This document shows, piece by piece, positions 27,002 through 42,351 of a stretch of DNA of 42,351 bases. Under the pieces are notes generated by a model. The model saw nothing but the letters and a program-made list of their open reading frames with translations. It was not told the DNA's origin and did not search any database. The DNA comes from Chloroflexota bacterium. GTDB taxonomy: Bacteria > Chloroflexota > Chloroflexia > QHBQ01. A program made the translations under genes and the position numbers. Every line of letters begins with the position of its first letter. Position 1 is the first letter of the stretch. Location of the stretch: contig JAYUUN010000056.1 of the NCBI GenBank assembly GCA_043754535.1, positions 1 to 42,351 on the forward strand, in the 5' to 3' direction.

Positions 27002-28690
27002 TCAGGGGGCGGCTGGGTACTGCTGCTTGTAGCGGAAGCTGCCTAGCTGACTCAGTTGCACCTCGTAGGCGGTACCAGCGTTCTCCGGGTGGTACTCGAA
27101 GACGGCCCGCTCAAAGTATTGCACAGTGTAGGTCTTGCCGTCGGTGTCGCTTTTCTCCTGAAACTCGTCGCTGATCGGGTAGCCCTGCTGGGCGAGGCCG
27201 CCACGCGTCTCCCAGTAAGTGCGGAACTTGCCGCCAACCACCTTGCCGGTCTGGGCGAAGGGGAGTGGGTTGTCAGTGCTAACGGTCTGCGCGGGCGGCG
27301 TAGCTGCTGGTGGCGGCGTAGCTTCGCAACCAACAGTGGCAGCTTCCGCTGTGTTGAGCAGGTTGCTACCCTGACTACCGCCTATCGCAAACACGATATT
27401 GCCTACGCTAGCTCCACCAGGGAGCATCCGCCGCTCAGCCATATCCAGCCCGCTCTGCCAGACGTTGGCAGCAGGATCGTAGGCGTAGCTCTGGCTGCGG
27501 GCAGCGGCGCGGCTGCCACCGATACCACCGAAGATGTAGAGGCGGTCACCAACCACTGCGCTACCAGGGTAGTCGAGGGTGTCGGGCAGATCGGCGCGCG
27601 CCATCCACTTGTCCGCCGCAATATCATAGTCATAAGTGGAGCGGCTGAAGCCAGACTTGTCCAGATCGTACCCAGCGGTAACATAGAGGTGGCCGTTGAT
27701 CACCCCATAGCCGAAACCACTGCTCCGGGTCGGCAGGGCGGCACGGGTGGCCCACTTGTCCGTCGCTGGGTCATATTCCCAGGTCTGGTTGCCAATACTG
27801 AGGACGCTGAGGCTGAGTACGCCGCCAACCAGGTAAATCTTGCCGTTCCAGTAGCCTGCCGCTGCCAGGCCGCGGATTTCAGGCATCGCAGTCCCACTGC
27901 TCCACGAGTTGCTGGCTATGTCATAGATGCGTGTGTCGTTGACGATTGCTCCCTTACCTGCCACGTCGCTGCCATGTACGCCACCGAAGAAGTAGAGTTT
28001 CTTGCTGCCTGGCACATAGACGGCATTGGCTACGGCGAAGTCGCTGGGCGCACTGGCGAGAGCAGTCCAACTGTTGGTGGCCGGGTCGTAGCGCAGCAGT
28101 TGCTTGCTCTCGGTTGCGCCACTGAGCGAGAGTGTGCCAGCGGTGGCGTAGATGTAAGTACCATCACTGACTGTTCCACCACCACTCGCCCCTGGCAGAG
28201 CGGCAACCGCCCGCCAGCCACCGAGAACAGGGTTAGCACAGGCAGCAGGAGGATTGCTGCTAGGATTATGCACGGTAGCCTCCGTCACAGCGGGGTTGTT
28301 TCGTGGGCTAGTCGGTAGCTGCTGGCTGACGAAGATCAGCGTGCTGGCGACCAACACCAACACCAGCATGGCTATGGCAAAGCGCGGCGGGCGATTGAAC
28401 AGCGGGCGCGCACGGGCTGGCAGGGTTACTTGCGTCTGCATCTCTGGGTTCCTTCTGCCCCGGTCAGGGGCGGTAGAGTTCGGTTTGGTTTGAGCCTGGG
28501 CCGCGATCATCTGGCGTAGCTGCTGACGGTAGGCGGTACTCGGCTGGCTGGGGCGTAGCTGGTGGCGCAGGCGACGAGCAAGGGCGGCCCGCTCACGGTC
28601 GAGCGCGGCTGGTGGCGTGGCAGCGGGGTCGGCGGTGAGTGCAGCAAGGTACAACTCTAGCAGTTCGGCCTGTTCTTCTTGCCTGCCCAT
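27002..28690 (-). CDS. Putative anti-sigma factor with TM helix, Kelch beta-propeller and Chloroflexia-type C-terminal domain
   Basis: Coupled to an ECF sigma (TGATG overlap). Six Kelch-like repeats (GG...YD...W), Pro/Thr linker and C-terminal GYPISDEF...QYFERAVFEYHPEN..V.L..LG. Confidence 0.8.
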   Translation of the reverse strand: MGRQEEQAELLELYLAALTADPAATPPAALDRERAALARRLRHQLRPSQPSTAYRQQLRQMIAAQAQTKPNSTAPDRGRRNPEMQTQVTLPARARPLFNRPPRFAIAMLVLVLVASTLIFVSQQLPTSPRNNPAVTEATVHNPSSNPPAACANPVLGGWRAVAALPGASGGGTVSDGTYIYATAGTLSLSGATESKQLLRYDPATNSWTALASAPSDFAVANAVYVPGSKKLYFFGGVHGSDVAGKGAIVNDTRIYDIASNSWSSGTAMPEIRGLAAAGYWNGKIYLVGGVLSLSVLSIGNQTWEYDPATDKWATRAALPTRSSGFGYGVINGHLYVTAGYDLDKSGFSRSTYDYDIAADKWMARADLPDTLDYPGSAVVGDRLYIFGGIGGSRAAARSQSYAYDPAANVWQSGLDMAERRMLPGGASVGNIVFAIGGSQGSNLLNTAEAATVGCEATPPPAATPPAQTVSTDNPLPFAQTGKVVGGKFRTYWETRGGLAQQGYPISDEFQEKSDTDGKTYTVQYFERAVFEYHPENAGTAYEVQLSQLGSFRYKQQYPAAP

Positions 28691-29271
28691 CAGTAAACCT
28701 CTCGTTTGATAATCAACTGCTTCAACCGCTCAACTGCACGGTGGCGCAGCATCCTGACTGCGGCCTCGCTCTTGCCCATTGCCGCTGCAATTTCGCCGCC
28801 GCTCCACCCTGCGCTGTCCAGTTCCAGCACATTACGCTGCTCGTCGGCCAGGTGGCTGATCGCCTGTAGTAGTTCGTGTCGCTCGGCAGCATCTACCGCC
28901 GCATCCTCCAGGGTTGGGCCGGGGGCGAGCAGGCGGTCAGCATCCAACACTGTTGTAGGTCGCCGCTTCTGGCTGTTGACCACAGTATTGTGGGCGATCC
29001 TGAACAGCCAGGCAGCAAAGGCTCGCTCCTGATAGCGTGGTAGAGCAACGAAAACTTCGAGGAAGATTTCGCTGGTTGCGTCCTCAGCGGCCTCACGGCT
29101 CTGCAAGCGCAGGTAGCAGTAAGCGTAAATGCGGTCGAGGTAGCGTTCGTAGAGCATGGTGAAGCGGGCGGGTTCGGCCTGAGCCACTCGCACCAACTCA
29201 TCGTCGCTCACTACCTTTGCATCAGCCGCGTCATCGCGCTGGCGGCTGACTATGCCAAACAAGATGATCAT
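28690..29271 (-). CDS. ECF RNA polymerase sigma factor, copy 3 (different subgroup)
   Basis: FTMLYERYLDRIYAYCY, AEDATSEIFL, FAAWLFRIAHN and EIAAAMGKSEAAVRMLRHRA motifs. Start uncertain (29271 or 29298). Confidence 0.88.
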   Translation of the reverse strand: MIILFGIVSRQRDDAADAKVVSDDELVRVAQAEPARFTMLYERYLDRIYAYCYLRLQSREAAEDATSEIFLEVFVALPRYQERAFAAWLFRIAHNTVVNSQKRRPTTVLDADRLLAPGPTLEDAAVDAAERHELLQAISHLADEQRNVLELDSAGWSGGEIAAAMGKSEAAVRMLRHRAVERLKQLIIKREVY

Positions 29272-29505
29272 CCTGCCTTCACCTGTCGTTCGTTGCAAGT
29301 CCGGGGCTTGCTGCCTACAGAAACAACGCAGCTGGGCAAACGTAACGGCCAGTTTGAGTTTTAATCTGGCACAGACTTAAGGCGGCCCATAATGAGCCGC
29401 CCGCGTCAGGTGCGATTTGGTAGATACTCCAATCAACAAACTGCCACCATTGTGTCACACTGCCGATTGAGGAGTACCGCTTGGGGCTACTCTCCCTGCT
29501 GGCAA

Positions 29506-30831
29506 TCAGCCGAGTTGGTCGGTTGGGATGTCACGCTGCTGTTGCAGGTTGAGGTGAACGGTCTTGCGGATGCCGTAGTTGATCGCCTTGCGCGCTTCCT
29601 CGCTCATCGGGTTGTTGGCCTGCAAGCTCTGTGCTTCCATCGCCAGGCGGTTCGCCAACTCTACCTCGCCCTGCGATAGTAGGCGGGTGGCTGCGCCCTG
29701 CAACTTCTGAGCAGCCCCAACCGTGTCGCCAGCGTTCAAGTCCTCCATCGCCCGCTGCTGCAACTTGTGGGCGGCTATCTTCTCCACCACGCTCATCACA
29801 GTTGGGTCGCTGGCAGAGTTAGGCAACTGTGCGGGTGGGTCGAAAGTCGCCACCACATCTGCACTGGCGATCAAGCCCCGCTGACGGCTGGCAGGCATAT
29901 CGTAGATCAAGTCTGCGCTGGCAATGCGAAAGTCACCCGCCTCCGAGGGGGGTAGCAGCAGTTCGAGCATCAAAGCCTGACCACGCCCACGCTCCACCTG
30001 ACCGATATAGTAGGTGCTACTCTCGCCAAAGTCGGCCCCGATATTAGGGGCTGCGGCAAGCTGGCTGATCTGCGGCATGGTGCGGTAGGCAGCCCGCAGG
30101 CTCACCCCTGGCGCAAGGCGCAGGCGCAGGCTAGCGTTATCAATCACCACTGCTTGCAAGCTGCGAACCGCCTCTTGAAAGTAGTCAATAATCCGCGCTG
30201 GGCTGTCCACGTAGTCGGCTACCCCACCCGTGAAGTCGGCTATGTCGTCGAGCAGCCGCTCATTCCAGTCGGTGCCAAGACCGAGGGCAGTGATGCCAAC
30301 CCGCTGCTGGGCGGCAATGCGGGCGGTATTGCGGCAGTCGTCCTCGCGCTCCGTGCGCCCATCGGTCAGCAATACCATCCGATTGAGTGGCACCGCAGCC
30401 TGACCCGCCAGCCGCACCCCCTCTTGCAGAGTACGAATCGCCTCGCGCATCGCAGGGGCCATGCGTGTGCCACCGAAGGGCTGAATCTGCTCAATATCGC
30501 GCTTGAGCCGGGGCCGCTGCATATCGTTGATCGTCGAAGCAGGGATAAAGGTCGTGTGGCGGCTGTTGAAGCCGACCACCGAGATGATATCGCTGGGGCT
30601 GAGTCGGTCAAGGACAAGGCGCACGGCCTCCTTGGCATAGCCGATCTTGTTCTGCGCCTCCATACTACCGCTATGGTCAATAACCAGGCACATATTGAGG
30701 GTGTTGGGCGCACTAGACAACATGGCGGCATTCGGCGTAATCTCCACCATCGCCTGGGCTACCTGCACCGTCCGCATCGCCGGTAGGTTCGAGCGGGCCA
30801 TCCGCACGCTCAAGTTAATCGCATCGGGCAT
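29506..30831 (-). CDS. von Willebrand factor A domain protein (YfbK-like)
   Basis: MIDAS motif DHSGS, GGT and LLTDG, followed by an Ig-like region and a helical C-terminus. Confidence 0.85.
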   Translation of the reverse strand: MPDAINLSVRMARSNLPAMRTVQVAQAMVEITPNAAMLSSAPNTLNMCLVIDHSGSMEAQNKIGYAKEAVRLVLDRLSPSDIISVVGFNSRHTTFIPASTINDMQRPRLKRDIEQIQPFGGTRMAPAMREAIRTLQEGVRLAGQAAVPLNRMVLLTDGRTEREDDCRNTARIAAQQRVGITALGLGTDWNERLLDDIADFTGGVADYVDSPARIIDYFQEAVRSLQAVVIDNASLRLRLAPGVSLRAAYRTMPQISQLAAAPNIGADFGESSTYYIGQVERGRGQALMLELLLPPSEAGDFRIASADLIYDMPASRQRGLIASADVVATFDPPAQLPNSASDPTVMSVVEKIAAHKLQQRAMEDLNAGDTVGAAQKLQGAATRLLSQGEVELANRLAMEAQSLQANNPMSEEARKAINYGIRKTVHLNLQQQRDIPTDQLG

Positions 30832-32792: not shown

Positions 32793-33674
32793 ATGGCTAA
32801 GGCTGGCTGGATCGCGCTGGGTGCGCTAACTGCAGGGGGCGTGCTATTGGCGCAGCGGGCAATCCGCAACCAACCACTGGTGACCGAAATCGTGGCGGGC
32901 GTATACGCCATAAACCTGCGCTTTGGCGGCCCATTGCGGGTCGGCAACCACGCCTACCTGCTCGACAATGGCGAGGGGCTGTTGCTGATAGACACTGGCA
33001 CGGTCAAGGACGGTGGCGACATTACGGCGGCGATCCAACAAATCGGCCACTCGCTTGCCGACCTGCGCGTGATCGTCGTCACCCACTGGCACTACGACCA
33101 CACTGGCTCGCTCTACGAACTGTTGCGTGGCGCACCCCAAGCTGTCGCCTATATGCACCCTCATGACCGCGAGGCAGTGGATGGCAAGGGCGGTAGCTCC
33201 TACTTCTACGGCATTGCGGGCGGCAAGGAAGGGCGGCGGATGCTTACCCAGGAGTACGACCCCACGCCAGCCGAGCTAGCTGACAGGCTGATCGGGGCGG
33301 ACACTGAGACGATTGGTGCAGCGGTTGCCCCCTGGGGTTTGCGAGCGATGCACACCCCCGGCCACACTCTCGGTAGCATGAGCTACTTCCATGACCAGCA
33401 GCGCATCCTCTTTCCCGGTGACGCAATGAACTATATGCTGGGCGCAGCTACTGCCCCCTTCATCCACGATGTCTATGAGGGCGGCTACGAGCGCACGCAG
33501 GAGCAGGCGGCAGCCTTCGCCGCGACAACCCCGCGCTATATCCTGCCCGCGCACATGACGATCAGCAGCCGCCCCAGCGAGTGGCAGGTGAGTGGCCCGC
33601 GCACTACCGCCCAGCGGTTGGCCGAGCGGGTGTTGGGGGTGAAGGTCAAGCTGGTGCGCGGAGGTAGAGAGTAA
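32793..33674 (+). CDS. MBL-fold metallo-hydrolase with N-terminal hydrophobic anchor
   Basis: LIDTG, THWHYDHTG (HxHxDH), HTPGHT, FPGD and PAH motifs. Confidence 0.88.
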   Translation: MAKAGWIALGALTAGGVLLAQRAIRNQPLVTEIVAGVYAINLRFGGPLRVGNHAYLLDNGEGLLLIDTGTVKDGGDITAAIQQIGHSLADLRVIVVTHWHYDHTGSLYELLRGAPQAVAYMHPHDREAVDGKGGSSYFYGIAGGKEGRRMLTQEYDPTPAELADRLIGADTETIGAAVAPWGLRAMHTPGHTLGSMSYFHDQQRILFPGDAMNYMLGAATAPFIHDVYEGGYERTQEQAAAFAATTPRYILPAHMTISSRPSEWQVSGPRTTAQRLAERVLGVKVKLVRGGRE

Positions 33675-33753
33675 TTCATCTGTCCTCTGCGTACAAGAAG
33701 GCTAAGCAGCCTGCTAAATCCCCTGCCAGGCAGTGCCAAGCAGCGGGCTGATA

Positions 33754-33762
33754 TGCTATAAT
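33754..33762 (+). promoter_or_regulatory. Extended -10 promoter upstream of the DnaE-like gene
   Basis: TGCTATAAT about 50 nt upstream of ATG 33811, with AGGAG at 33792-33796. Confidence 0.55.
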
Positions 33763-33810
33763 GAGCCGCGTCCGCAGCCGAACAAGCCGACAGGAGTTAC
33801 CCCGCCAGCC

Positions 33811-36423
33811 ATGCCCCGCCCAGCCCCTCTGCCCCTCTTTGCCGAACTCGAACCAGCCTTCGCTGGCCCACCCCTGTTGCTCGTGCGTGAGGCGGGCGGC
33901 AGTCGGGCGTTGGGTCGCGCCAGCGACTACGTAGCCGCCGCCGTCGCCCACGGCTGGCCTGCCATAGTTGCGGCTAATGTTGGCACACTGGCAGGCAGCC
34001 TCGACCTCTACGTGGCCGCCCGCGCCGCTGGCTTGCAAGCCGTGCTTGGCCTGGAGGTGCCGCTGCGGGTTGGTGAGGATGCGTATAGCGGCAGGAAGCG
34101 CGAGCCAATCGCCCCCACGCCCTTGCTGCTGCTGGCCCGCGATGCTGAGGGCTGGCGTAGCCTCTTGCGCCTGGCAGCGATGGCCGCCACCCCCGGCTGG
34201 GCTGCTGACCTCGAACTACTACGCCGCAACCCTGGCCTGAGCGTGGTTAGCCTCGGCCTCGCGCAGGCAGTGCTGGCTGGCAGAGACAAGCTGGCGGCTC
34301 TGGCCCGTACCCTGGCTGCCACCCAACAGGCAGTCGGTAGCACCCATCTCTACGCTGCCATCCCACACAGCCATACGGAGCAGGCCGGGGCGCGGGCGCA
34401 GAAGCAGGCGGCTGAATTGGGCATCGCCAGCGTCGCTCTGCAAGAGGCCCGCTACGCCAGCGAGGATGAGGCGGAGGCTTACGCTGCCCTCTGCACTCTC
34501 TACCAGCAGCCACCGCCCGAAGCCGCCTACCACATCGGCCCGCCAAGCGAGGCTGCCCGCGCCTTCGATGGACTGGACAGCTTGCGGGCGGTGGCTGAGT
34601 TGTTGCAGGCACACACAGCAGACCTCTGGCAGCCGCCCGCCCTACTTGGCACGCCACCACCCACTAGCCCGCGTACGCCAGGGACGGGGCCAGTGGAGGA
34701 GCAGGCGGTGGCGGTGGAAGCGGCGGGGTTGCTGCCCACCTATACCCTCGTGGCCGAGATCACAGCGGGGTTGCGGGAGCGAGGGTTGATCTGTCGGCTG
34801 GTACCGGGGCAGGGGGCCGACCTGTTCGCGGCCAGCATCGGCGCAACCAACCTGCCAGCGGCACTGCTGACCGCTGGTGGTAGGCTGAAGGCCAGCCTCT
34901 GCCTTGAGTATGCCAGCACCAGCGAAGCTAGCCTGCTGACTTATGTCGCTGAGCGGTGGCCGCAGGCGATCCTTGTACAAGCGACAGCCCGCACTACCCT
35001 GCGCCAGGCTTTGCGCGAGGCGGCGAAGGTACGCGGCAGTGAGGGTGAGCTAACTACTTTGTTGCAGTGGGCAGCCAGCAGTGAGCCAAAGGGAGGCGAC
35101 CTTAGCCCAGCTGCGGCGGCCACCCTTGCGCTGGCCGAGCGGTTGGGCGGGCGGCCACGCTGGGGCGAGGCGAGCAGCCGCAGCCTGCTGATCCCGGCGG
35201 CCAGCCCCCCGCTGCCACTGCCACTGCACGCCGAGTCGCCGCTTGCCAGCCTCACCATTGAGCGCGCTACTGCCGTTGCCCTCGGCGCAGTGCTGCTAGA
35301 CTTGCAACCCAATCCCCGGCTCGATCTCGTGCAGCAGGTAGCGACTGGCGAGATCGACCCCCAAGATGCAGCCACCTGGCGGCTGATTGCGGCTGGCGAA
35401 GCAGAGCGGTTGGATGGCTGGAACGCACCGCTAGCCCCCACCGCCGACTGGCCTACCCTGCTGGCTGCCCTCGCCAGCCCCGACGCGCCCGCCGATCACC
35501 CAGCAACGGCGGCTCTGGCCTGGGACAGCTATTGCCTGGCCTGGGGCAAGGCACACGACCTTGCCGCCTACTATGCCGCCGCTGGCCCCACCCTCGGTCT
35601 GCACCCGCTGGCGCAGCACCGCGAACAGTGGCAGGCAGCCTTCGCCGACGGACGCTTGGCGGGCGGCCCGCTGGCGGCGAGTGAACGGCCTATGCGCCTG
35701 TTTGGGGTGCTGCGCCAGCCGCGCCGCCTGCTCGCCAACGATGGTAGCACCTTGCTGACAGCCTGGTTGGACGACTGGCAGGGCAGTAGTCGGGTGTTCG
35801 GCTTTGGCCCGCTGGTCGAGCGGATCGTAGCCCTGAGCGAGGGCCAGCCCGCCCTACTGCTGGGCCGGGCAGTGGCGGGTAAGGATGGAGAGGTTAGCTT
35901 GCTGGTTGAAGATGCTGCCCCCTTCAGCGGTACAGTGCCGCCGCTGCCAGCCGTTGTGCAGACGGTCAGGCAAGCGAGGGTGGCCGCCCCGACTGGCGAC
36001 TTCTTTGCTGCCGTGCCAGAGCAGCACCCCCCAGAACCGCCTGCCCCCAGTACGCCCGCGGTCGGCAAGGTAACCACCCCGCCCAAAGCTACCGCTGCCA
36101 ACGACCGGGGCAGCAAGGAGAAAGCGAAGCTGGCCCCGCCCCCCCCACCACTCGTCACCCTGCGCCGCTTGCATCTGCGCCTGCCAGTCAGCGACGACCA
36201 GGCGGAGGACATTGGTGTAGCCCAACAGGTCGCAGACCTTGCCCGCCAGCACCCAGGCCGCGACCTCCTGCTCCTCTACATCCAGTGGAGCAGCCAGGAC
36301 GTGTGCATTGAACCTTACGGCTTCGGTGTTGCCGCCGACGAGTTTAGTGGGGCGGTGGCCGCCAGCCTGGGCCAGGGCATCATCTTCGCCGCCGACACGG
36401 TGGAGCGGCCCGCCCCCGCCTGA
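33811..36423 (+). CDS. Divergent DNA polymerase III alpha (DnaE)-like protein, predicted catalytically inactive
   Basis: Collinear DnaE-like blocks: PHP (AAAVAHGWPAIVAANVGTLAGSLDLYVAARAAGLQAVLGLEV; LLLLARDAEGWRSLLRL), thumb (TLRQALREAAKVRG; LAERLGGRPR), LGAVLLDL, IDPQDAATWRLIAAGE, SYCLAWGKAH, LGLHPL, OB fold and C-terminal LHLRLP...HPGRDLLLLYI domain. No PDxDxD motif. Confidence 0.75.
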   Translation: MPRPAPLPLFAELEPAFAGPPLLLVREAGGSRALGRASDYVAAAVAHGWPAIVAANVGTLAGSLDLYVAARAAGLQAVLGLEVPLRVGEDAYSGRKREPIAPTPLLLLARDAEGWRSLLRLAAMAATPGWAADLELLRRNPGLSVVSLGLAQAVLAGRDKLAALARTLAATQQAVGSTHLYAAIPHSHTEQAGARAQKQAAELGIASVALQEARYASEDEAEAYAALCTLYQQPPPEAAYHIGPPSEAARAFDGLDSLRAVAELLQAHTADLWQPPALLGTPPPTSPRTPGTGPVEEQAVAVEAAGLLPTYTLVAEITAGLRERGLICRLVPGQGADLFAASIGATNLPAALLTAGGRLKASLCLEYASTSEASLLTYVAERWPQAILVQATARTTLRQALREAAKVRGSEGELTTLLQWAASSEPKGGDLSPAAAATLALAERLGGRPRWGEASSRSLLIPAASPPLPLPLHAESPLASLTIERATAVALGAVLLDLQPNPRLDLVQQVATGEIDPQDAATWRLIAAGEAERLDGWNAPLAPTADWPTLLAALASPDAPADHPATAALAWDSYCLAWGKAHDLAAYYAAAGPTLGLHPLAQHREQWQAAFADGRLAGGPLAASERPMRLFGVLRQPRRLLANDGSTLLTAWLDDWQGSSRVFGFGPLVERIVALSEGQPALLLGRAVAGKDGEVSLLVEDAAPFSGTVPPLPAVVQTVRQARVAAPTGDFFAAVPEQHPPEPPAPSTPAVGKVTTPPKATAANDRGSKEKAKLAPPPPPLVTLRRLHLRLPVSDDQAEDIGVAQQVADLARQHPGRDLLLLYIQWSSQDVCIEPYGFGVAADEFSGAVAASLGQGIIFAADTVERPAPA

Positions 36424-36430
36424 GCAGAGG

Positions 36431-37615
36431 CTAGACCAGCTTCAGCACATCGGCCAGCACGCCTGCTGCCGTCACCGTCGCGCCTGCCCCTGGCCCCTGC
36501 ACGATCAGCGGGTTGTCGCGGTAGCGCATGGTGCGCCAGATAAATAGGCTGTCGGTGCCGCGCAGCCGACCAGCAGGCGAGTCCTTGTCCACCGCCTGCA
36601 AGCCCACCCGACTACCGCCAGGGGTGACAGCAGCGAGGTAGCGTAGTACCTTACCCTCCGCCACTGCTGCCTGTTGTCGCTGAGCAATCCGTGCATCCAC
36701 GTCGGCCAGCCCTGCCCAGAATTGTTCGAGGCTAGCTTCAGCCTTGCTGAGGCCGAGTGGCACCAGGCTCTCCACCGCCACGTCGCTGAGGTTGATGCGC
36801 TGCTCCATACGGCGGGCGAGGATCAAGGCCTTGCGGGCTGCGTCCAGGCCGCTAAGGTCGTCGCGGGGGTCTGGTTCAGTATAGCCACGGTCGGCGGCTT
36901 CGCGCAGAGCCGTACTGAAACTGAGGCCACGATCCAGGCCGGTGCAGAGATAGCCGAGCGTACCGCTGACGCTGGCTACGATGCTCTCAATCTGGTCGCC
37001 GCTCGCCAGCAAGTCCTCCAGGGTGCTGATCACTGGCAGGCCCGCCCCCACCGTCGCCTCGTGGCGCACCCGTCCCAGCTTTGACTTCACGCCAGGGCGG
37101 GTGTAGGGCTGCATCTCTGTCAGGTCGTTGATGTTGTCTACTGCCACCCCGGTGCTGGACATGGTGCGGCCCGGCAACTCTGGAGCGATCTCCATGTAGT
37201 CCTCGTAGGGGACGGCCAGGGGAGCCTTGTTCGCCAGCACGAGGTCGCAGCCATACTGGCGGCAACCAGCCAGCAGCGGGAAGGTCGCCTCGGTCGCAGC
37301 CAGGTCTATGACGATCACTGGCATATTGAGGCGGGCGACCAACTCTGGCAGCGCACTGAGGTCTGCCGTGTACAGCACACCACCGATGCCCCAAAGGTCG
37401 AGTGGGCGACCCGCGACCTTGTTGGCGAGTAGGGAGGTGAGCGCGTCGGGCGACCACCCTTGTAGCCGCAGGTACAACCCCTTGCTGTCGGCCAGCCCAA
37501 TATATTGCAGGTGATCCAGCCGCCCCGCTGCCTGCTGGCTGCTAATCTGGCGCACCAGTTCCTTCCCCACCTTGCCCAGCCCTAGCTGGATCAGGCCCAC
37601 CTTGTCTGCGATCAT
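36431..37615 (-). CDS. hom: Homoserine dehydrogenase (stand-alone, no ACT domain)
   Basis: GLGKVG, LANK, HEATVGAGLPVI, SGTLGY, TEPDPRDDLSGLDAARK and GPGAG motifs. Confidence 0.92.
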   Translation of the reverse strand: MIADKVGLIQLGLGKVGKELVRQISSQQAAGRLDHLQYIGLADSKGLYLRLQGWSPDALTSLLANKVAGRPLDLWGIGGVLYTADLSALPELVARLNMPVIVIDLAATEATFPLLAGCRQYGCDLVLANKAPLAVPYEDYMEIAPELPGRTMSSTGVAVDNINDLTEMQPYTRPGVKSKLGRVRHEATVGAGLPVISTLEDLLASGDQIESIVASVSGTLGYLCTGLDRGLSFSTALREAADRGYTEPDPRDDLSGLDAARKALILARRMEQRINLSDVAVESLVPLGLSKAEASLEQFWAGLADVDARIAQRQQAAVAEGKVLRYLAAVTPGGSRVGLQAVDKDSPAGRLRGTDSLFIWRTMRYRDNPLIVQGPGAGATVTAAGVLADVLKLV

Positions 37616-37673
37616 CTTTCACCTCCCCGGTTGTGTGGTCAGGGCTATTGTACACCAGTGGCGCACGGATAGG

Positions 37674-38846
37674 TTAGCCCGCAGCCAGGAAGGGCCGCAG
37701 GATCGCTGTCAACTGCTGATGCTCGATCAGGAAAGCGTCGTGGCCCCAGGGCGAGTCCAGTTCAACGTACTGCACCGCTTTGCCCGCGAGTTGCAGGGCA
37801 GCGGCCATCTCCTGCTGCAAGCGGGTGGGAAAGAGCAGGTCGCTGTTGATGCCAAGCACCAGCGTGCGGGCCGTCACCCGCGCCAACCCCGCTGCCAGGT
37901 CGCCGCGCCCCCGCGCTACATCGTGCAAGTCCATCGCCCGCGTAAGGACGAGGTAGCTGTTCGCATCGAAGCGGCGCACCAGTTGCGCCCCCTGGTAGTA
38001 GAGATAGTTTTCCACCTGGAAGCGGCTGGCGGGCTGGTAGTAGCTAGCGGGGTCAGCCTCTACCCGCTCGCGGCCAAACTTGCGCCGCATGGACTCGTCC
38101 GACTGGTAGCTGATCATCCCCACCATGCGGGCCAGGGCCAGCCCTTGCTCTGGGCTGCGACCTGTGCCGTAGTAGTCGCCGCCCTGCCAGTCAGGGTCGA
38201 TCTCGATAGCCCGCCGCCCGATCAGGCTGAAGGCGATCCCTTGTGGGCTGTGCGCGAAGCTAGCGGCAATTGGTACGGCAGCGGCTACGAAATCAGGGTA
38301 GCAGACTAGCCACTCGGCCACCTGCATCCCCCCCAACGAGCCGCCGATCACGCAAGCCAGTCGCTGCACCCCCAGGGCAACAAGCAAGCGGTATTCCAGC
38401 CGCACCATATCGCGCACGGTGACGGTGGGGAAGCGTGAACCGTAAGCGAGGCCGTTGGCGGCGGGACTGGTGGGGCCAGTTGTTCCCTGACAACCACCAA
38501 GGATGTTGGCACAGACCACAAAGTAGCGGTCAGTATCCAACGCCCGCCCCGGCCCGATCAGCGCGTCCCACCAGCCCGCTCTACTCTCGCCCGCATACAC
38601 CCCCGCCGCATGGCTGTCACCAGTCAGGGCGTGGCAGACGTACACACCATTGTCGCCCGCGGCGTTCAGCGTCCCCCACGTCTCGTAGGCCACCTGCACG
38701 GTGGGCAGGGTCACGCCGCTCTCAGTAATATAGGGTAGGGGGTCGAGCCAAATACGCTGCACGCTAATGCCAGCCGCTGCTTGGCCTGCCAGGGAAGCGA
38801 CCGAGGGATCATCGTCGAGGTTGATTGTAGCAATAGGTTCGTTCAT
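37674..38846 (-). CDS. metX: Homoserine O-acetyltransferase
   Basis: CHALTGDSH, WWDALIGPG, GGSLGGMQ (Ser nucleophile), SDLLF and GHDAFL motifs. Confidence 0.93.
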   Translation of the reverse strand: MNEPIATINLDDDPSVASLAGQAAAGISVQRIWLDPLPYITESGVTLPTVQVAYETWGTLNAAGDNGVYVCHALTGDSHAAGVYAGESRAGWWDALIGPGRALDTDRYFVVCANILGGCQGTTGPTSPAANGLAYGSRFPTVTVRDMVRLEYRLLVALGVQRLACVIGGSLGGMQVAEWLVCYPDFVAAAVPIAASFAHSPQGIAFSLIGRRAIEIDPDWQGGDYYGTGRSPEQGLALARMVGMISYQSDESMRRKFGRERVEADPASYYQPASRFQVENYLYYQGAQLVRRFDANSYLVLTRAMDLHDVARGRGDLAAGLARVTARTLVLGINSDLLFPTRLQQEMAAALQLAGKAVQYVELDSPWGHDAFLIEHQQLTAILRPFLAAG

Positions 38847-39620
38847 TTATTTGGGCGGTTGAGCGGTTGGGTTGACGATCAGGTAGGCGATCAGGGCGGC
38901 GACAACGACCAGGAAAAGGACACGCACGAAGCCGCTACCCTTCGCCATTGCCACCCGCGTGCCGAGGACGGAGCCGCCGATATTGCAGACTGCCATCGGC
39001 AGCGCGTAGGCGTACAGGATGGTGCCGCCGAACAGCAGGAAGGAGATGATCGCCGCCAGGTTGGTAGCGAAGTTGACTACTTTGGCCGAGGCTGAGGCGG
39101 TCAGGAAATCGAAGCCGAAGCCCGCGATAAAGACCAGGATCAGGAAGCTACCCGTCCCCGGCCCGAAGAAGCCGTCGTAGAAGCCGATGCCCGCCCCAGC
39201 AATCACCCCAACCGTGACTTGCCGCCGATGTGCCAGCTTCGGGGCGTGGAGCGCGCCAAAGTCCTTCTTGACGAAGGTGTAGATGGCGACGACGATCAGC
39301 AGGCCAATGATCAGCGGGCGCAGCACTTCCTTGTTGAGCAGGCTGACCGCCTGTGCGCCGAGGAACGATGCAGCAAAAGCTGCGCCCGCCGCTGGCAGCA
39401 GCGCAGTCCAGTCCAGCTTGATCCGTCGGGCGTAGCGGTAGGCCGCCACGCTGGTGCCAGCAATCGAGGCTAGCTTGTTGGTGCCAGAGAGGAAGGGGAA
39501 GGGGTAGCCAGGCAGGATCGCCAGCAGCGCAGGCAACTGGATCAGCCCGCCGCCGCCCACCGCCGAGTCTACGAAGCCCGCCAGGAACGCGAAGCCGCAC
39601 AACAGGATTGTTTCTAGCAA
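38847..39620 (-). CDS. TauE/SafE (TSUP) family membrane transporter, YfcA-like
   Basis: AGFVDSAVGGGGLIQLPAL, GTNK, GFYDGFFGPGTGSF and AKVVNFATN motifs. Confidence 0.9.
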   Translation of the reverse strand: MLETILLCGFAFLAGFVDSAVGGGGLIQLPALLAILPGYPFPFLSGTNKLASIAGTSVAAYRYARRIKLDWTALLPAAGAAFAASFLGAQAVSLLNKEVLRPLIIGLLIVVAIYTFVKKDFGALHAPKLAHRRQVTVGVIAGAGIGFYDGFFGPGTGSFLILVFIAGFGFDFLTASASAKVVNFATNLAAIISFLLFGGTILYAYALPMAVCNIGGSVLGTRVAMAKGSGFVRVLFLVVVAALIAYLIVNPTAQPPK

Positions 39621-39655
39621 GGTGATGTAGTCAACCTGAACCTGATTTTTGGATA

Positions 39656-39790
39656 GCTGGCTAAGAGGGAAAGCTGGTCGGACGCTGTACAGCCCTGCCC
39701 TGGTCTCCTTGTGGAGCGACCGTCCGAGCGGCGGCCAGCTTCCTCTCAGCCCAGCGGGTAGTAGGCGGCAGCACTGCTACGCTACCGCCT
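39656..39790 (-). other. Structured intergenic element between metY and tauE
   Basis: About 20-bp bulged outer stem (39656-39677 / 39735-39755), nested TCGGACG/CGTCCGA stem, inner hairpin and a second 10-bp hairpin at 39763-39790. The mismatches become G-U pairs on the minus (sense) strand. Confidence 0.45.
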
Positions 39791-39803
39791 GATTGGCTGC
39801 TGA

Positions 39804-41348
<1,545 letters not shown>

Positions 41349-41358
41349 ACCGTCCATC

Positions 41359-42351
41359 CTATCCCGATATGTAACCCTGAGCCTTCAACAACTCGGCGAT
41401 CAGGATCACGTTGCCAGCCGCCCCGCGCACCAGGTTGTGGCCCAGCAGCACGAACTTCCAGTCTAGCACGCTGCACTTGCGCAGTCGCCCAACCGACGTA
41501 CTCATCCCCCCGCCAGCATCGCGGTCGAGGCGCGGCTGCGGTCGATCTGGCTCGCTGCGGTAGATCACCGGCTGGGGTGGTGCGGTTGGTAGCTCCAGCC
41601 GCTCTAGCGGTCGCCAGTCCTGCCAGGCAGCGATGATTTCCTCGGCAGTGATCGGGTACTCCATCTCAACCGACACGCTCTCAAAGTGACCGTCAATTAC
41701 TGGCACGCGGGTAGTGGTTGCACTTATGCGCAGCGAACCCCGCTCATGCGCTGGCTCCCTACCAAGTATCTTGAGGGTTTCGGCCTCGATCTTCTCCTCC
41801 TCACCACCGATGTGCGGGATCACGTTGTCGGTGATGCTGAGGGCCGAAACACCGTCATAGCCAGCCCCGCTGATCGCCTGCATCGTCGTCACCAGCACAG
41901 CATTGAGGGCGAACTCGTTGCTGATCGGGGCAAGGACAAGCACTAGATGAGAGGTGGAGCAGTTCGGCGTGCAAGCGATCAACCCCGACCAGCCGCGCTT
42001 CTCCTGCTGCGTCTTGATCAGGCTAGTGTGCTGCCAGTTGATCTCTGGGAGCAGCAGTGGCACATCGGCGGCCATGCGGTAACTTTTGGCGTTGCTGACT
42101 ACTGCGTGACCGGCGCGGGCGAACTCTAGCTCCAGGCTCTCGGCTTCCTCGGCTTGCAACGCGCTGAGGATGATCGGGGTGTCGAAGTTGCGCGAGTCGC
42201 TTGCCACCACAGTCAGATCAAGTGCGTCGTCACCGATGCCCGTATCGTCGCGTAGCACGTCGCCGTAGCGTTTGCCGACCGTGCGCGACGAGCCGCTGAC
42301 TGCCCGCACCGCAAACCAGGGGTGGCCGCGCAGCAGACGCACGATGCGTGA
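41359..42351 (-). CDS. asd: Aspartate-semialdehyde dehydrogenase (archaeal/eukaryote-like type), 5' end outside the window
   Basis: HPWF, VVSNAKSYRM..DVPLLLPEIN, PNCST (catalytic Cys), TMQAISGAG, RVPVIDGH and HNLVRGAAG motifs. Confidence 0.93.
   Translation of the reverse strand, partial: SRIVRLLRGHPWFAVRAVSGSSRTVGKRYGDVLRDDTGIGDDALDLTVVASDSRNFDTPIILSALQAEEAESLELEFARAGHAVVSNAKSYRMAADVPLLLPEINWQHTSLIKTQQEKRGWSGLIACTPNCSTSHLVLVLAPISNEFALNAVLVTTMQAISGAGYDGVSALSITDNVIPHIGGEEEKIEAETLKILGREPAHERGSLRISATTTRVPVIDGHFESVSVEMEYPITAEEIIAAWQDWRPLERLELPTAPPQPVIYRSEPDRPQPRLDRDAGGGMSTSVGRLRKCSVLDWKFVLLGHNLVRGAAGNVILIAELLKAQGYISG

Follow-up and report, generated by a model that had tools for sequence, protein, structure and literature searches.

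A catalytically inactivated, shortened DnaE homologue kept under selection in a family of Chloroflexia

The 42,351-nucleotide (nt) stretch of Chloroflexota DNA analysed here (contig JAYUUN010000056.1, hereafter the window) carries an intact open reading frame (ORF) for a protein of 870 amino acids (aa) that is a true homologue of DnaE, the alpha subunit of DNA polymerase III (Pol III), with the domain order PHP, palm, thumb, OB fold and C-terminal domain. Its catalytic centre has been dismantled, its frame is maintained by selection, and it is the sole detectable C-family homologue in the genomes of the window's family. The reading that we prefer, with a probability of roughly 0.7, is that the gene product descends from a DnaE1-type alpha subunit, is shortened and non-catalytic, and has been kept as a structural part, or scaffold, of the replisome.

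In Pfam searches, the 870-aa protein gave a single weak match, to the PHP domain (34.1 bits, residues 34–138), and no match to the DnaE palm, fingers (PF17657) or HhH (PF14579) models. The NCBIfam DnaE models covered just residues 37–230, with scores of 52.8 bits against a cut-off of 1002 for the DnaE1 model NF004226 and 44.3 bits against 434 for TIGR00594. A profile of alignment A1 (six family sequences) matched 1440 proteins at E ≤ 0.001 in a library of 1.84 billion representatives; the top matches examined were all DnaE proteins of ~1100–1300 aa, and seven of them were inspected for catalytic motifs. Profile positions 61–593 correspond to DnaE residues ~17–610 (PHP, palm and thumb) and positions 649–875 to residues ~944–1167 (OB and C-terminal domain), the identity of the window protein to DnaE being ~20%. 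The C-terminal domain can also be aligned to the C-terminal ends of canonical DnaE (P0008) and the full-length dead DnaE proteins described below. An AlphaFold model built from the six family sequences alone was unusable (predicted local distance difference test, pLDDT, 44) and was replaced by one built on a 70-row alignment of family members, longer dead relatives and canonical DnaE (alignment A2), which reached a pLDDT of 83.5 and a predicted template modelling score (pTM) of 0.69. Its best Foldseek matches were Thermus aquaticus (Taq) Pol III alpha (2hpi, E 1.8e-29), Mycobacterium tuberculosis DnaE1 and Escherichia coli alpha. Because the model alignment included canonical DnaE, the sequence homology and this fold match are not independent evidence. 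A first-pass annotation of the window, made from the letters alone, had recognised a DnaE homologue with its blocks in the correct order, and the profile search, Foldseek and a profile alignment to Taq alpha all agree with it.

The catalytic aspartates of C-family polymerases are D401, D403 and D555 in E. coli and D463, D465 and D618 in Taq alpha. We mapped the corresponding residues by the profile alignment to Taq alpha and by two multiple alignments, which were in agreement. The strand PDIDTDF is replaced by ASLCLEY, which places S362 at Taq D463, C364 at D465 and E366 at D467, while D497 stands at D618, the third catalytic aspartate. Only one of the three palm aspartates is thus kept (D497), S362 and C364 having replaced the other two. 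The first-pass annotation had put the palm motif at 34891–34911 and the sole kept aspartate at codon 35299, and both coordinates proved exact. Within the strand, S362, L363, L365, E366 and Y367 are invariant across the six family sequences. The glycine–serine (GS) loop GPGRGSAAGS is replaced by VPGQGAD, three residues short, with the family pattern (V/G)(P/A)GQG-(A/G)D. The loss of the PHP metal ligands that had been reported earlier was borne out by the alignment, with HxH replaced by LLV(R) and TDH by ANV. The stretch equal to Taq ~676–810, which forms the fingers, is deleted, and the whole beta-binding/HhH region with its internal clamp motif is missing from the window's family. Since the fingers are deleted too, the catalytic loss is more thorough than the first-pass annotation had claimed. 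Judged from its sequence, polymerase catalysis of the usual kind is not possible for the 870-aa protein, which probably no longer synthesises DNA.

The window's family (f1) is represented by five genomes in two genera, G000, the window's own, to G004. Open orthologous frames were present in all five, and databases supplied three more sequences, one labelled at source as a metagenome-assembled genome (MAG) of Candidatus Chloroheliales, Chloroflexia. Identity is 93% within the genus (G000/G001) and 43% between the genera, with many invariant blocks. For the G000/G001 pair, the Nei–Gojobori method gave a non-synonymous rate (dN) of 0.036, a synonymous rate (dS) of 0.178 and a dN/dS of 0.20; an independent within-genus pair (G002/G004) gave 0.119, 0.598 and again 0.20. 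Across all 150-codon windows, dN/dS lay between 0.07 and 0.34. Because orthologues occur in all five genomes and dN/dS is ~0.20, we conclude that the gene is under selection and not decaying, as had been supposed earlier from the absence of stops in so diverged an ORF.

The first-pass annotation had further supposed that a normal dnaE would be found elsewhere in the genome. None was found, either in G000, where four kinds of search were made, or in the four sister genomes. These assemblies are of metagenome type, 83–89% complete and in 132 to ~1000 contigs (G000, 88.9% in 132 contigs; G001–G004, 83–87%). The DnaE palm model PF07733 had no match in any of the five, and the fingers model PF17657 had none even at E ≤ 1; as a control, PF07733 matched at three places in one genome of the sister family and gave matches in 10 of 14 control genomes. 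In G000, TIGR00594 at E ≤ 10 returned the window ORF, a 303-aa PHP protein and nothing more, and tblastn with two canonical DnaE proteins of the sister family returned the window ORF alone (E 0.002). Finally, a local profile of 60 canonical DnaE proteins was run on all 39,460 six-frame ORFs of G000 (≥50 aa). Its matches were the window ORF (97.7 bits, confined to the N- and C-terminal parts), the 303-aa PHP protein (33.5 bits) and, weakly, a 708-aa frame on contig C29 that was left unexamined (17.8 bits, E 0.0013), with nothing else above the HMMER inclusion threshold.

Other polymerases and replisome components are present in the family. Pol I, a second family-A polymerase and Y-family DinB (one each) were detected in 5/5 genomes, as were DnaN, DnaX frames of tau length (585–742 aa) and DnaQ-like exonuclease domains. 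A family B polymerase was considered as a replacement replicase and rejected as a general answer, as it occurs in 3/3 genomes of the sister genus and in neither of the two genomes of the window's own. A second, divergent DnaN-like ORF was noted in G000 (C12:5424–5780, a 436-aa frame; PF00712, E 5e-11), the ordinary dnaN lying on contig C28.

Matches to the C-terminal third of the window protein led to ORFs of ~1230–1300 aa in the sister family (f2). These are full-length DnaE homologues in which the PHP HxH is kept and PDxDxD, the GS loop and the third aspartate are all replaced. With a full-length f2 query, the dead type was found in 26/26 f2 genomes and 7/9 genomes of family f3, and related dead ORFs of ~1000–1070 aa occur in f6, a family of another order for which all our counts come from sampled genomes. 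Four of the f2 forms are just 1060–1072 aa long (G009:C2:776375–779569, G013:C717, G023:C163 and G027:C121); they do not have the part matching full-length residues ~579–730, a loss of fingers separate from that in the window's family. The dead DnaE of G005, also of f2, is split across two contig ends (C70 and C64). The f2 and f3 tallies include the unpublished genomes G007, G015 and G034 (f2) and G012 (f3). Without these, the dead type stands at 23/23 in f2, the strong catalytic match described below at 12/23 in f2 and 1/8 in f3, and the second family-A polymerase at 22/23 and 7/8; no conclusion hangs on them.

A maximum-likelihood (ML) tree was built from 30 sequences, 12 of them dead. The dead ones formed one group (Shimodaira–Hasegawa-like approximate likelihood ratio test, SH-aLRT, 99) that was joined to the DnaE1 of other families (99); the tree did not include P0008, P0010, P0014, P0073, G058's partial f6 sequence or G005's second catalytic copy. 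Deeper placement is unsure because of long branches and unequal composition. The full-length dead proteins (~1000–1300 aa; for example P0043, P0073 and ORFs in L037–L040 and L052–L055) form one clade with the window protein, and they share with it the replacement of the PDxDxD strand and the C-terminal domain. Glutamate at the third position of the strand is found in f1 and in 5/6 f2-type sequences, with glutamine in P0043, and is absent from the f3 and f6 types. In the full-length forms the fingers remain mostly or partly, together with the HhH region and the internal clamp motif, but the third aspartate is lost, whereas the window's family keeps D497. At the clamp-motif position, an internal QxDLF/QxSLF is present in 6/6 f2-type, 3/3 f6-type and 1/2 f3-type dead sequences. 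The window's family is the most reduced form of an old clade of dead DnaE.

Catalytic DnaE, scored as a strong palm match (PF07733 at E ≤ 1e-50), is distributed unevenly in the same families: 15/26 genomes in f2, 1/9 in f3, 12/16 in f6 and 0/5 in f1. Eight more f2 genomes gave weak PF07733 matches alone (E 1e-4 to 1e-13), located on dead ORFs. In the ten other families of Chloroflexia, a strong palm match was present in all 84 genomes sampled (at least 85% complete). The catalytic copies that were read have no C-terminal domain, one of 1240 aa ending after a weak OB match and another, of 961 aa, being without an OB fold, and the f2 and f3 copies branch outside the DnaE1 group in the ML tree. 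The catalytic copies in the clade are patchy and of an accessory kind. By Pfam, no imu genes were found among the neighbours of catalytic DnaE in two genomes. Immediately upstream of the f3 copy (G006) is an ORF that scores weakly as Pol IV-like (46.8 bits against a cut-off of 367), an order resembling that of imuB-dnaE2 cassettes. This ORF is the nearest of three (339, 251 and 467 aa; L058:8986–12590) upstream of the catalytic gene that had no Pfam match, and the three may be a diverged imuB/imuA'-type cassette. In one f2 genome (G005; contigs C57 and C18; L009 and L010), catalytic DnaE is present in two full copies, whose PHP domain contains an unusual acidic insertion of ~40–50 residues.

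These data bear on the possibility that the window ORF is an accessory dead paralogue, acting as a regulator, decoy or repair scaffold, and that all five assemblies missed a catalytic dnaE because it was unbinned, collapsed or unassembled. The incompleteness of the genomes favours such a miss, many f2 genomes do hold a dead and a catalytic copy together, and two catalytic copies in one genome, as in the f2 case above, are a situation able to break assemblies. However, neither palm nor fingers was detected in any of the five genomes, four kinds of search agreed in G000, and the chance of five misses calculated from completeness is ~7e-5 if they were independent, which they are not fully. In addition, 8/9 f3 genomes are likewise without a catalytic DnaE, the catalytic copies of the clade do not have the DnaE1-type C-terminal domain, and those in the window's own order branch outside DnaE1. 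We consider this explanation unlikely, and the best placed of the alternatives.

The second family-A polymerase, which we call PolA-II, is P0006 in G000, a protein of 837 aa (contig C124:65235–67745; L027/L079), with relatives in L028–L032, L059–L065 and L078. It consists of an N-terminal zinc ribbon, a low-complexity linker, a 3'-5' exonuclease and a family-A polymerase domain, with no 5' nuclease. Its best NCBIfam model is NF011539, 'bifunctional 3'-5' exonuclease/DNA polymerase' (568 bits, cut-off 640). Relatives at 48% identity or more were present in 5/5 f1, 24/26 f2, 8/9 f3 and 16/16 sampled f6 genomes; the three f2 and f3 genomes without one are 63%, 66% and 71% complete, and one of them has a fragment. 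In the other families of Chloroflexia PolA-II was found in 0/84 genomes, ten of which gave just Pol I-sized matches of 33–38% identity. Exonuclease motifs I–III and polymerase motifs A–C are intact in 13/13 aligned PolA-II sequences, and identity between families is 52–66%. All 13 carry a Q-x-x-M-F/L just before the INLNS motif (residues 491–495 in P0006), a feature absent at that place from the Pol I of the same family, and which we take to resemble clamp-binding motifs. An EYYxxL helix is conserved in the N-terminal region. Many f2 copies are frames of 1150–1627 aa with split matches, and the one scanned contained an intein and LAGLIDADG domains, as do many database relatives; in many copies, one or two inteins lie within the polymerase domain. 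Among the 120 best database relatives, the labels given at source were Chloroflexota, Chloroflexia and Candidatus Chlorohelix sp. (one so labelled is 700 aa long), with one Myxococcales MAG. PolA-II is surrounded by housekeeping genes in the four genomes inspected, with no common replisome gene and no signs of prophage. Near PolA-II in G048, two adjacent thioredoxin genes lie ~1.3–2 kb away (L081:10477–11244), an arrangement not seen in the other three neighbourhoods. The polymerase of phage T7 uses thioredoxin as a processivity factor.

The phyletic pattern points to PolA-II as the polymerase that the dead DnaE would recruit; such a pattern does not show physical or functional coupling. The co-occurrence of dead DnaE and PolA-II carries no statistical weight by itself, because it probably reflects just one or two evolutionary events. 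A predicted complex between whole dead DnaE and the N-terminal 125 residues of PolA-II (zinc ribbon and EYYxxL helix) gave scores of 0.36, 0.01 and 0.00, which count neither for nor against binding.

Because its clade is universal in f2 and carries a DnaE1-type C-terminal domain, the window ORF looks like a replisomal alpha subunit turned scaffold. The first-pass annotation had proposed a non-catalytic replisome or repair partner, a decoy or a regulator; on the same two grounds, the notion of a non-catalytic replisome partner appears sound and that of a decoy or side copy does not. In E. coli and Thermus alpha, the C-terminal domain binds tau. By analogy, the C-terminal domain of the dead protein would still dock to the clamp loader through tau, and docking to the beta clamp could be provided by the N-terminal PLPLF in the window's family and by the internal QxDLF/QxSLF in the others. 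PLPLF is invariant in the six N-termini seen (five A1 rows and P0007), and residues 1–32 of the G001 protein, whose N-terminus was located on a different contig, are identical to those of the window protein. We take this motif to resemble those of the QL[SD]LF type that bind the clamp. The dead palm and thumb, with the OB fold, may hold DNA. In such an arrangement, dead alpha would serve as an adaptor that brings another catalytic polymerase to the fork, with PolA-II as the likeliest candidate.

We offer a wider version of this idea only tentatively, at somewhat below even odds: that an entire clade within the Chloroflexia, made up of the window's family plus three or more further families from two orders, replicates without a catalytically competent C-family polymerase, its alpha subunit having become a dead adaptor for clamp and clamp loader, while the proofreading, intein-prone PolA-II copies the chromosome. 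Under that reading, the takeover would be complete in the window's family, where no catalytic DnaE of any kind would remain. For f2 and f6 a milder variant is possible, in which a catalytic DnaE without a C-terminal domain and a dead copy with one make up a split alpha subunit; the catalytic half of such a pair was not found in the window's family.

Several points weigh against a scaffold role in the replisome. The absence of a canonical dnaE falls short of proof because the f1 assemblies are metagenome-type and 83–89% complete, and the five misses are not independent because the five genomes are relatives. Catalytic DnaE copies exist in the clade (15/26 f2, 12/16 f6 and 1/9 f3 genomes). Core replisome proteins would usually be expected to be under tighter constraint than a dN/dS of 0.2, and the dead DnaE evolves far faster than PolA-II in the same families (21–25% against 52–55% identity). 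The dead clade branches in the ML tree as sister group to DnaE1 from other families, without being nested among these, and the f6 catalytic copies group with DnaE1 (SH-aLRT 90); given these two placements, the dead clade could be an old paralogue and not the DnaE1 orthologue. The binding of clamp, tau and polymerase is putative throughout, PLPLF being a motif resemblance.

A second alternative, to which we give a similarly low but slightly smaller probability, is that the dead derivative works outside chromosome replication, as a damage-tolerance scaffold on the analogy of ImuB or as a regulator by titrating clamp or tau. There is precedent for dead polymerase homologues that scaffold a mutasome, ImuB being so described in the available text of PMC3919608 and PMC12926913; moreover, the window gene lies among genes of amino-acid metabolism with no replisome neighbours, and its dN/dS is relatively relaxed. 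Against this, the dead DnaE is universal in f1 (5/5) and f2 (26/26), whereas mutasome genes are patchy, and no imuA- or imuB-like neighbour lies within the window. The C-terminal domain has also been kept, and DnaE2 never has one, as far as the available text of PMC3919608 goes. It is very improbable that the protein is still a DNA polymerase with an unorthodox active site built from, for example, E366, D497 and other residues: these two are family-invariant and sit on the two catalytic strands, but the nucleotide-binding fingers and the GS loop are gone, D497 is lost as well in the full-length relatives, and there is no Pfam palm match. A decaying pseudogene whose frame is still open by chance, which the strong divergence from DnaE (~20% identity) might suggest, is in practice refuted by dN/dS values of 0.20 in two pairs and 0.07–0.34 in every 150-codon window, by frames open in all five genomes, by the many invariant columns and confident model, and by the presence of a promoter-like site and a ribosome-binding site.

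The features of the gene are collected in Table 1. Translation confirmed the uninterrupted ORF, with no stops before the stop codon, and a consensus match agrees with the extended -10 promoter that had been reported for it, as a TG-extended TATAAT. The reading frame is open upstream as far as a GTG at 33733, which falls within the promoter-like site; ATG 33811 was taken as the start, since the conserved motif M..KPLPLFGE stands at the beginning of the orthologues too. The promoter-like site is unique within 33500–36700, against a mean of 0.2 in shuffled sequence. G+C is 0.65–0.70 at the gene and 0.57–0.67 in the rest of the window.

Table 1. Features of the dead DnaE gene and its product (window coordinates)
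Feature	Coordinates (strand)	Residues	Basis or remark
Promoter-like site: GTGCCA, 18-nt spacer, TG-extended TATAAT	33733..33762 (+)		10/12 matches; consensus match only
Shine–Dalgarno-like AGGAG	33792..33796 (+)		14 nt 5' of ATG; read from sequence
Coding sequence, dead shortened DnaE homologue	33811..36423 (+)		870 aa + stop
Candidate beta-clamp-binding motif PLPLF	33826..33840 (+)	6–10	
Degenerate PHP domain	33871..34620 (+)	~21–270	NCBIfam DnaE models match 37–230; alignment; pLDDT mostly >90
Palm and thumb region without catalytic centre	34693..35490 (+)	~295–560	Aligns to Taq alpha 382–675
ASLCLEY strand	34891..34911 (+)	S362, C364, E366	PDxDxDF strand of active enzymes
Equivalent of third catalytic Asp	35299..35301 (+)	D497	Taq D618; invariant in family
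Fingers remnant	35500..35646 (+)	564–612	~Taq 810–842; short helix pair before OB; weak alignment
OB fold	35680..35922 (+)	624–704	Aligns to M. tuberculosis DnaE1 1019–1104; modelled beta strands; Foldseek OB matches
Pro/Ala/Lys-rich linker, predicted disordered	35923..36150 (+)	705–780	pLDDT <50 at 716–771; poorly conserved
DnaE1-type C-terminal domain	36151..36411 (+)	781–867	pLDDT ~90

Within the window, the gene is surrounded by metabolic (amino-acid) genes and has no replisome neighbours. An aspartate-family amino-acid cluster occupies 36431–42351 on the minus strand, with genes for homoserine dehydrogenase, an alpha/beta hydrolase, a TauE exporter, a Cys/Met pyridoxal phosphate (PLP) enzyme and aspartate-semialdehyde dehydrogenase; the homoserine dehydrogenase gene adjoins the dead DnaE in G001 too. 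Elsewhere in the window (27002–30831, minus strand), a Kelch-repeat protein (562 aa), an extracytoplasmic function (ECF)-type sigma factor (202 aa) and a VWA-domain protein (441 aa) are encoded in a row, which may be a sigma/anti-sigma-like module.

By profile and structure, the window protein has the same domain order and fold as DnaE1 (2hpi, 2hnh, 5lew and 7pu7). It differs in its length of 870 aa instead of ~1150–1250 aa, in scoring far below every curated DnaE cut-off, in the replacement of two of the three catalytic aspartates, in its shortened GS loop and in the loss of the PHP ligands, the fingers and the beta-binding/HhH region. DnaE2, as described in the available text of PMC3919608, has an intact palm and no C-terminal domain, is usually encoded beside imuA/imuB and is non-essential. 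An identity with DnaE2 was rejected, as the window protein has a C-terminal domain, a dead palm and metabolic neighbours. Because it does not have the defining catalytic features of either, we file it neither as DnaE1 nor as DnaE2; it is a DnaE1-derived pseudo-polymerase. For the full-length dead DnaE of the sister families, our literature searches found no description.

PolA-II resembles other additional family-A polymerases, namely actinobacterial PolA2/APEX and the phage-related PolA3, in having no 5' nuclease domain. In the available text of PMC12926913, PolA2/APEX, whose exonuclease is dead, is restricted to Actinobacteria, and PolA3 is scattered and prophage-encoded. PolA-II, by contrast, has an intact exonuclease, is vertically conserved in four families of Chloroflexia, has housekeeping neighbours and often carries inteins.

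According to the available text of two surveys, every bacterium surveyed encodes a catalytic Pol III subunit of the DnaE type (PMC3919608, ~2000 genomes; PMC12926913, 3070 complete genomes). Our literature searches found neither an inactive DnaE nor a bacterium without a catalytic C-family polymerase, the surveys' supplementary tables, with a possible diverged 'DnaEX' of this lineage, lying outside the search. The universality of catalytic DnaE underlies the view that the replicases of bacteria on the one hand and of archaea and eukaryotes on the other are unrelated and fixed. Replacement of the replicase, which our data suggest, would be categorically new for bacteria. If it proved true in closed genomes and at the bench, this would be the first free-living bacterial lineage with a swapped replicase catalytic core, and a natural intermediate with the old subunit retained as scaffold, offering a direct test case for the displacement of replicative polymerases. 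To our knowledge, such displacement is known otherwise only from organelles and viruses. On a more modest reading, the window protein is, as far as our literature searches found, the first described inactivated C-family polymerase under selection.

The closest functional analogy is ImuB, the inactive Y-family scaffold of the mutasome made up of ImuA, ImuB and DnaE2, which in the available text of PMC3919608 and PMC12926913 is likewise catalytically dead, selected and an adaptor for another polymerase. ImuB is of another polymerase family and fold, works in damage tolerance and has a patchy distribution, whereas the dead DnaE derives from a replicative enzyme and is universal in its lineage. 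Inactivated family-B modules are also kept for structural reasons, in the C-terminal half of eukaryotic Pol epsilon and in an inactivated archaeal PolB. As the dead DnaE would be, these are replicative modules without catalysis that are retained in the replisome; they belong to another polymerase family and domain of life, and an active module of the same family stays in the complex. Dead polymerase scaffolds are thus known in other families, and the C-family case described here is, according to our literature searches, new.

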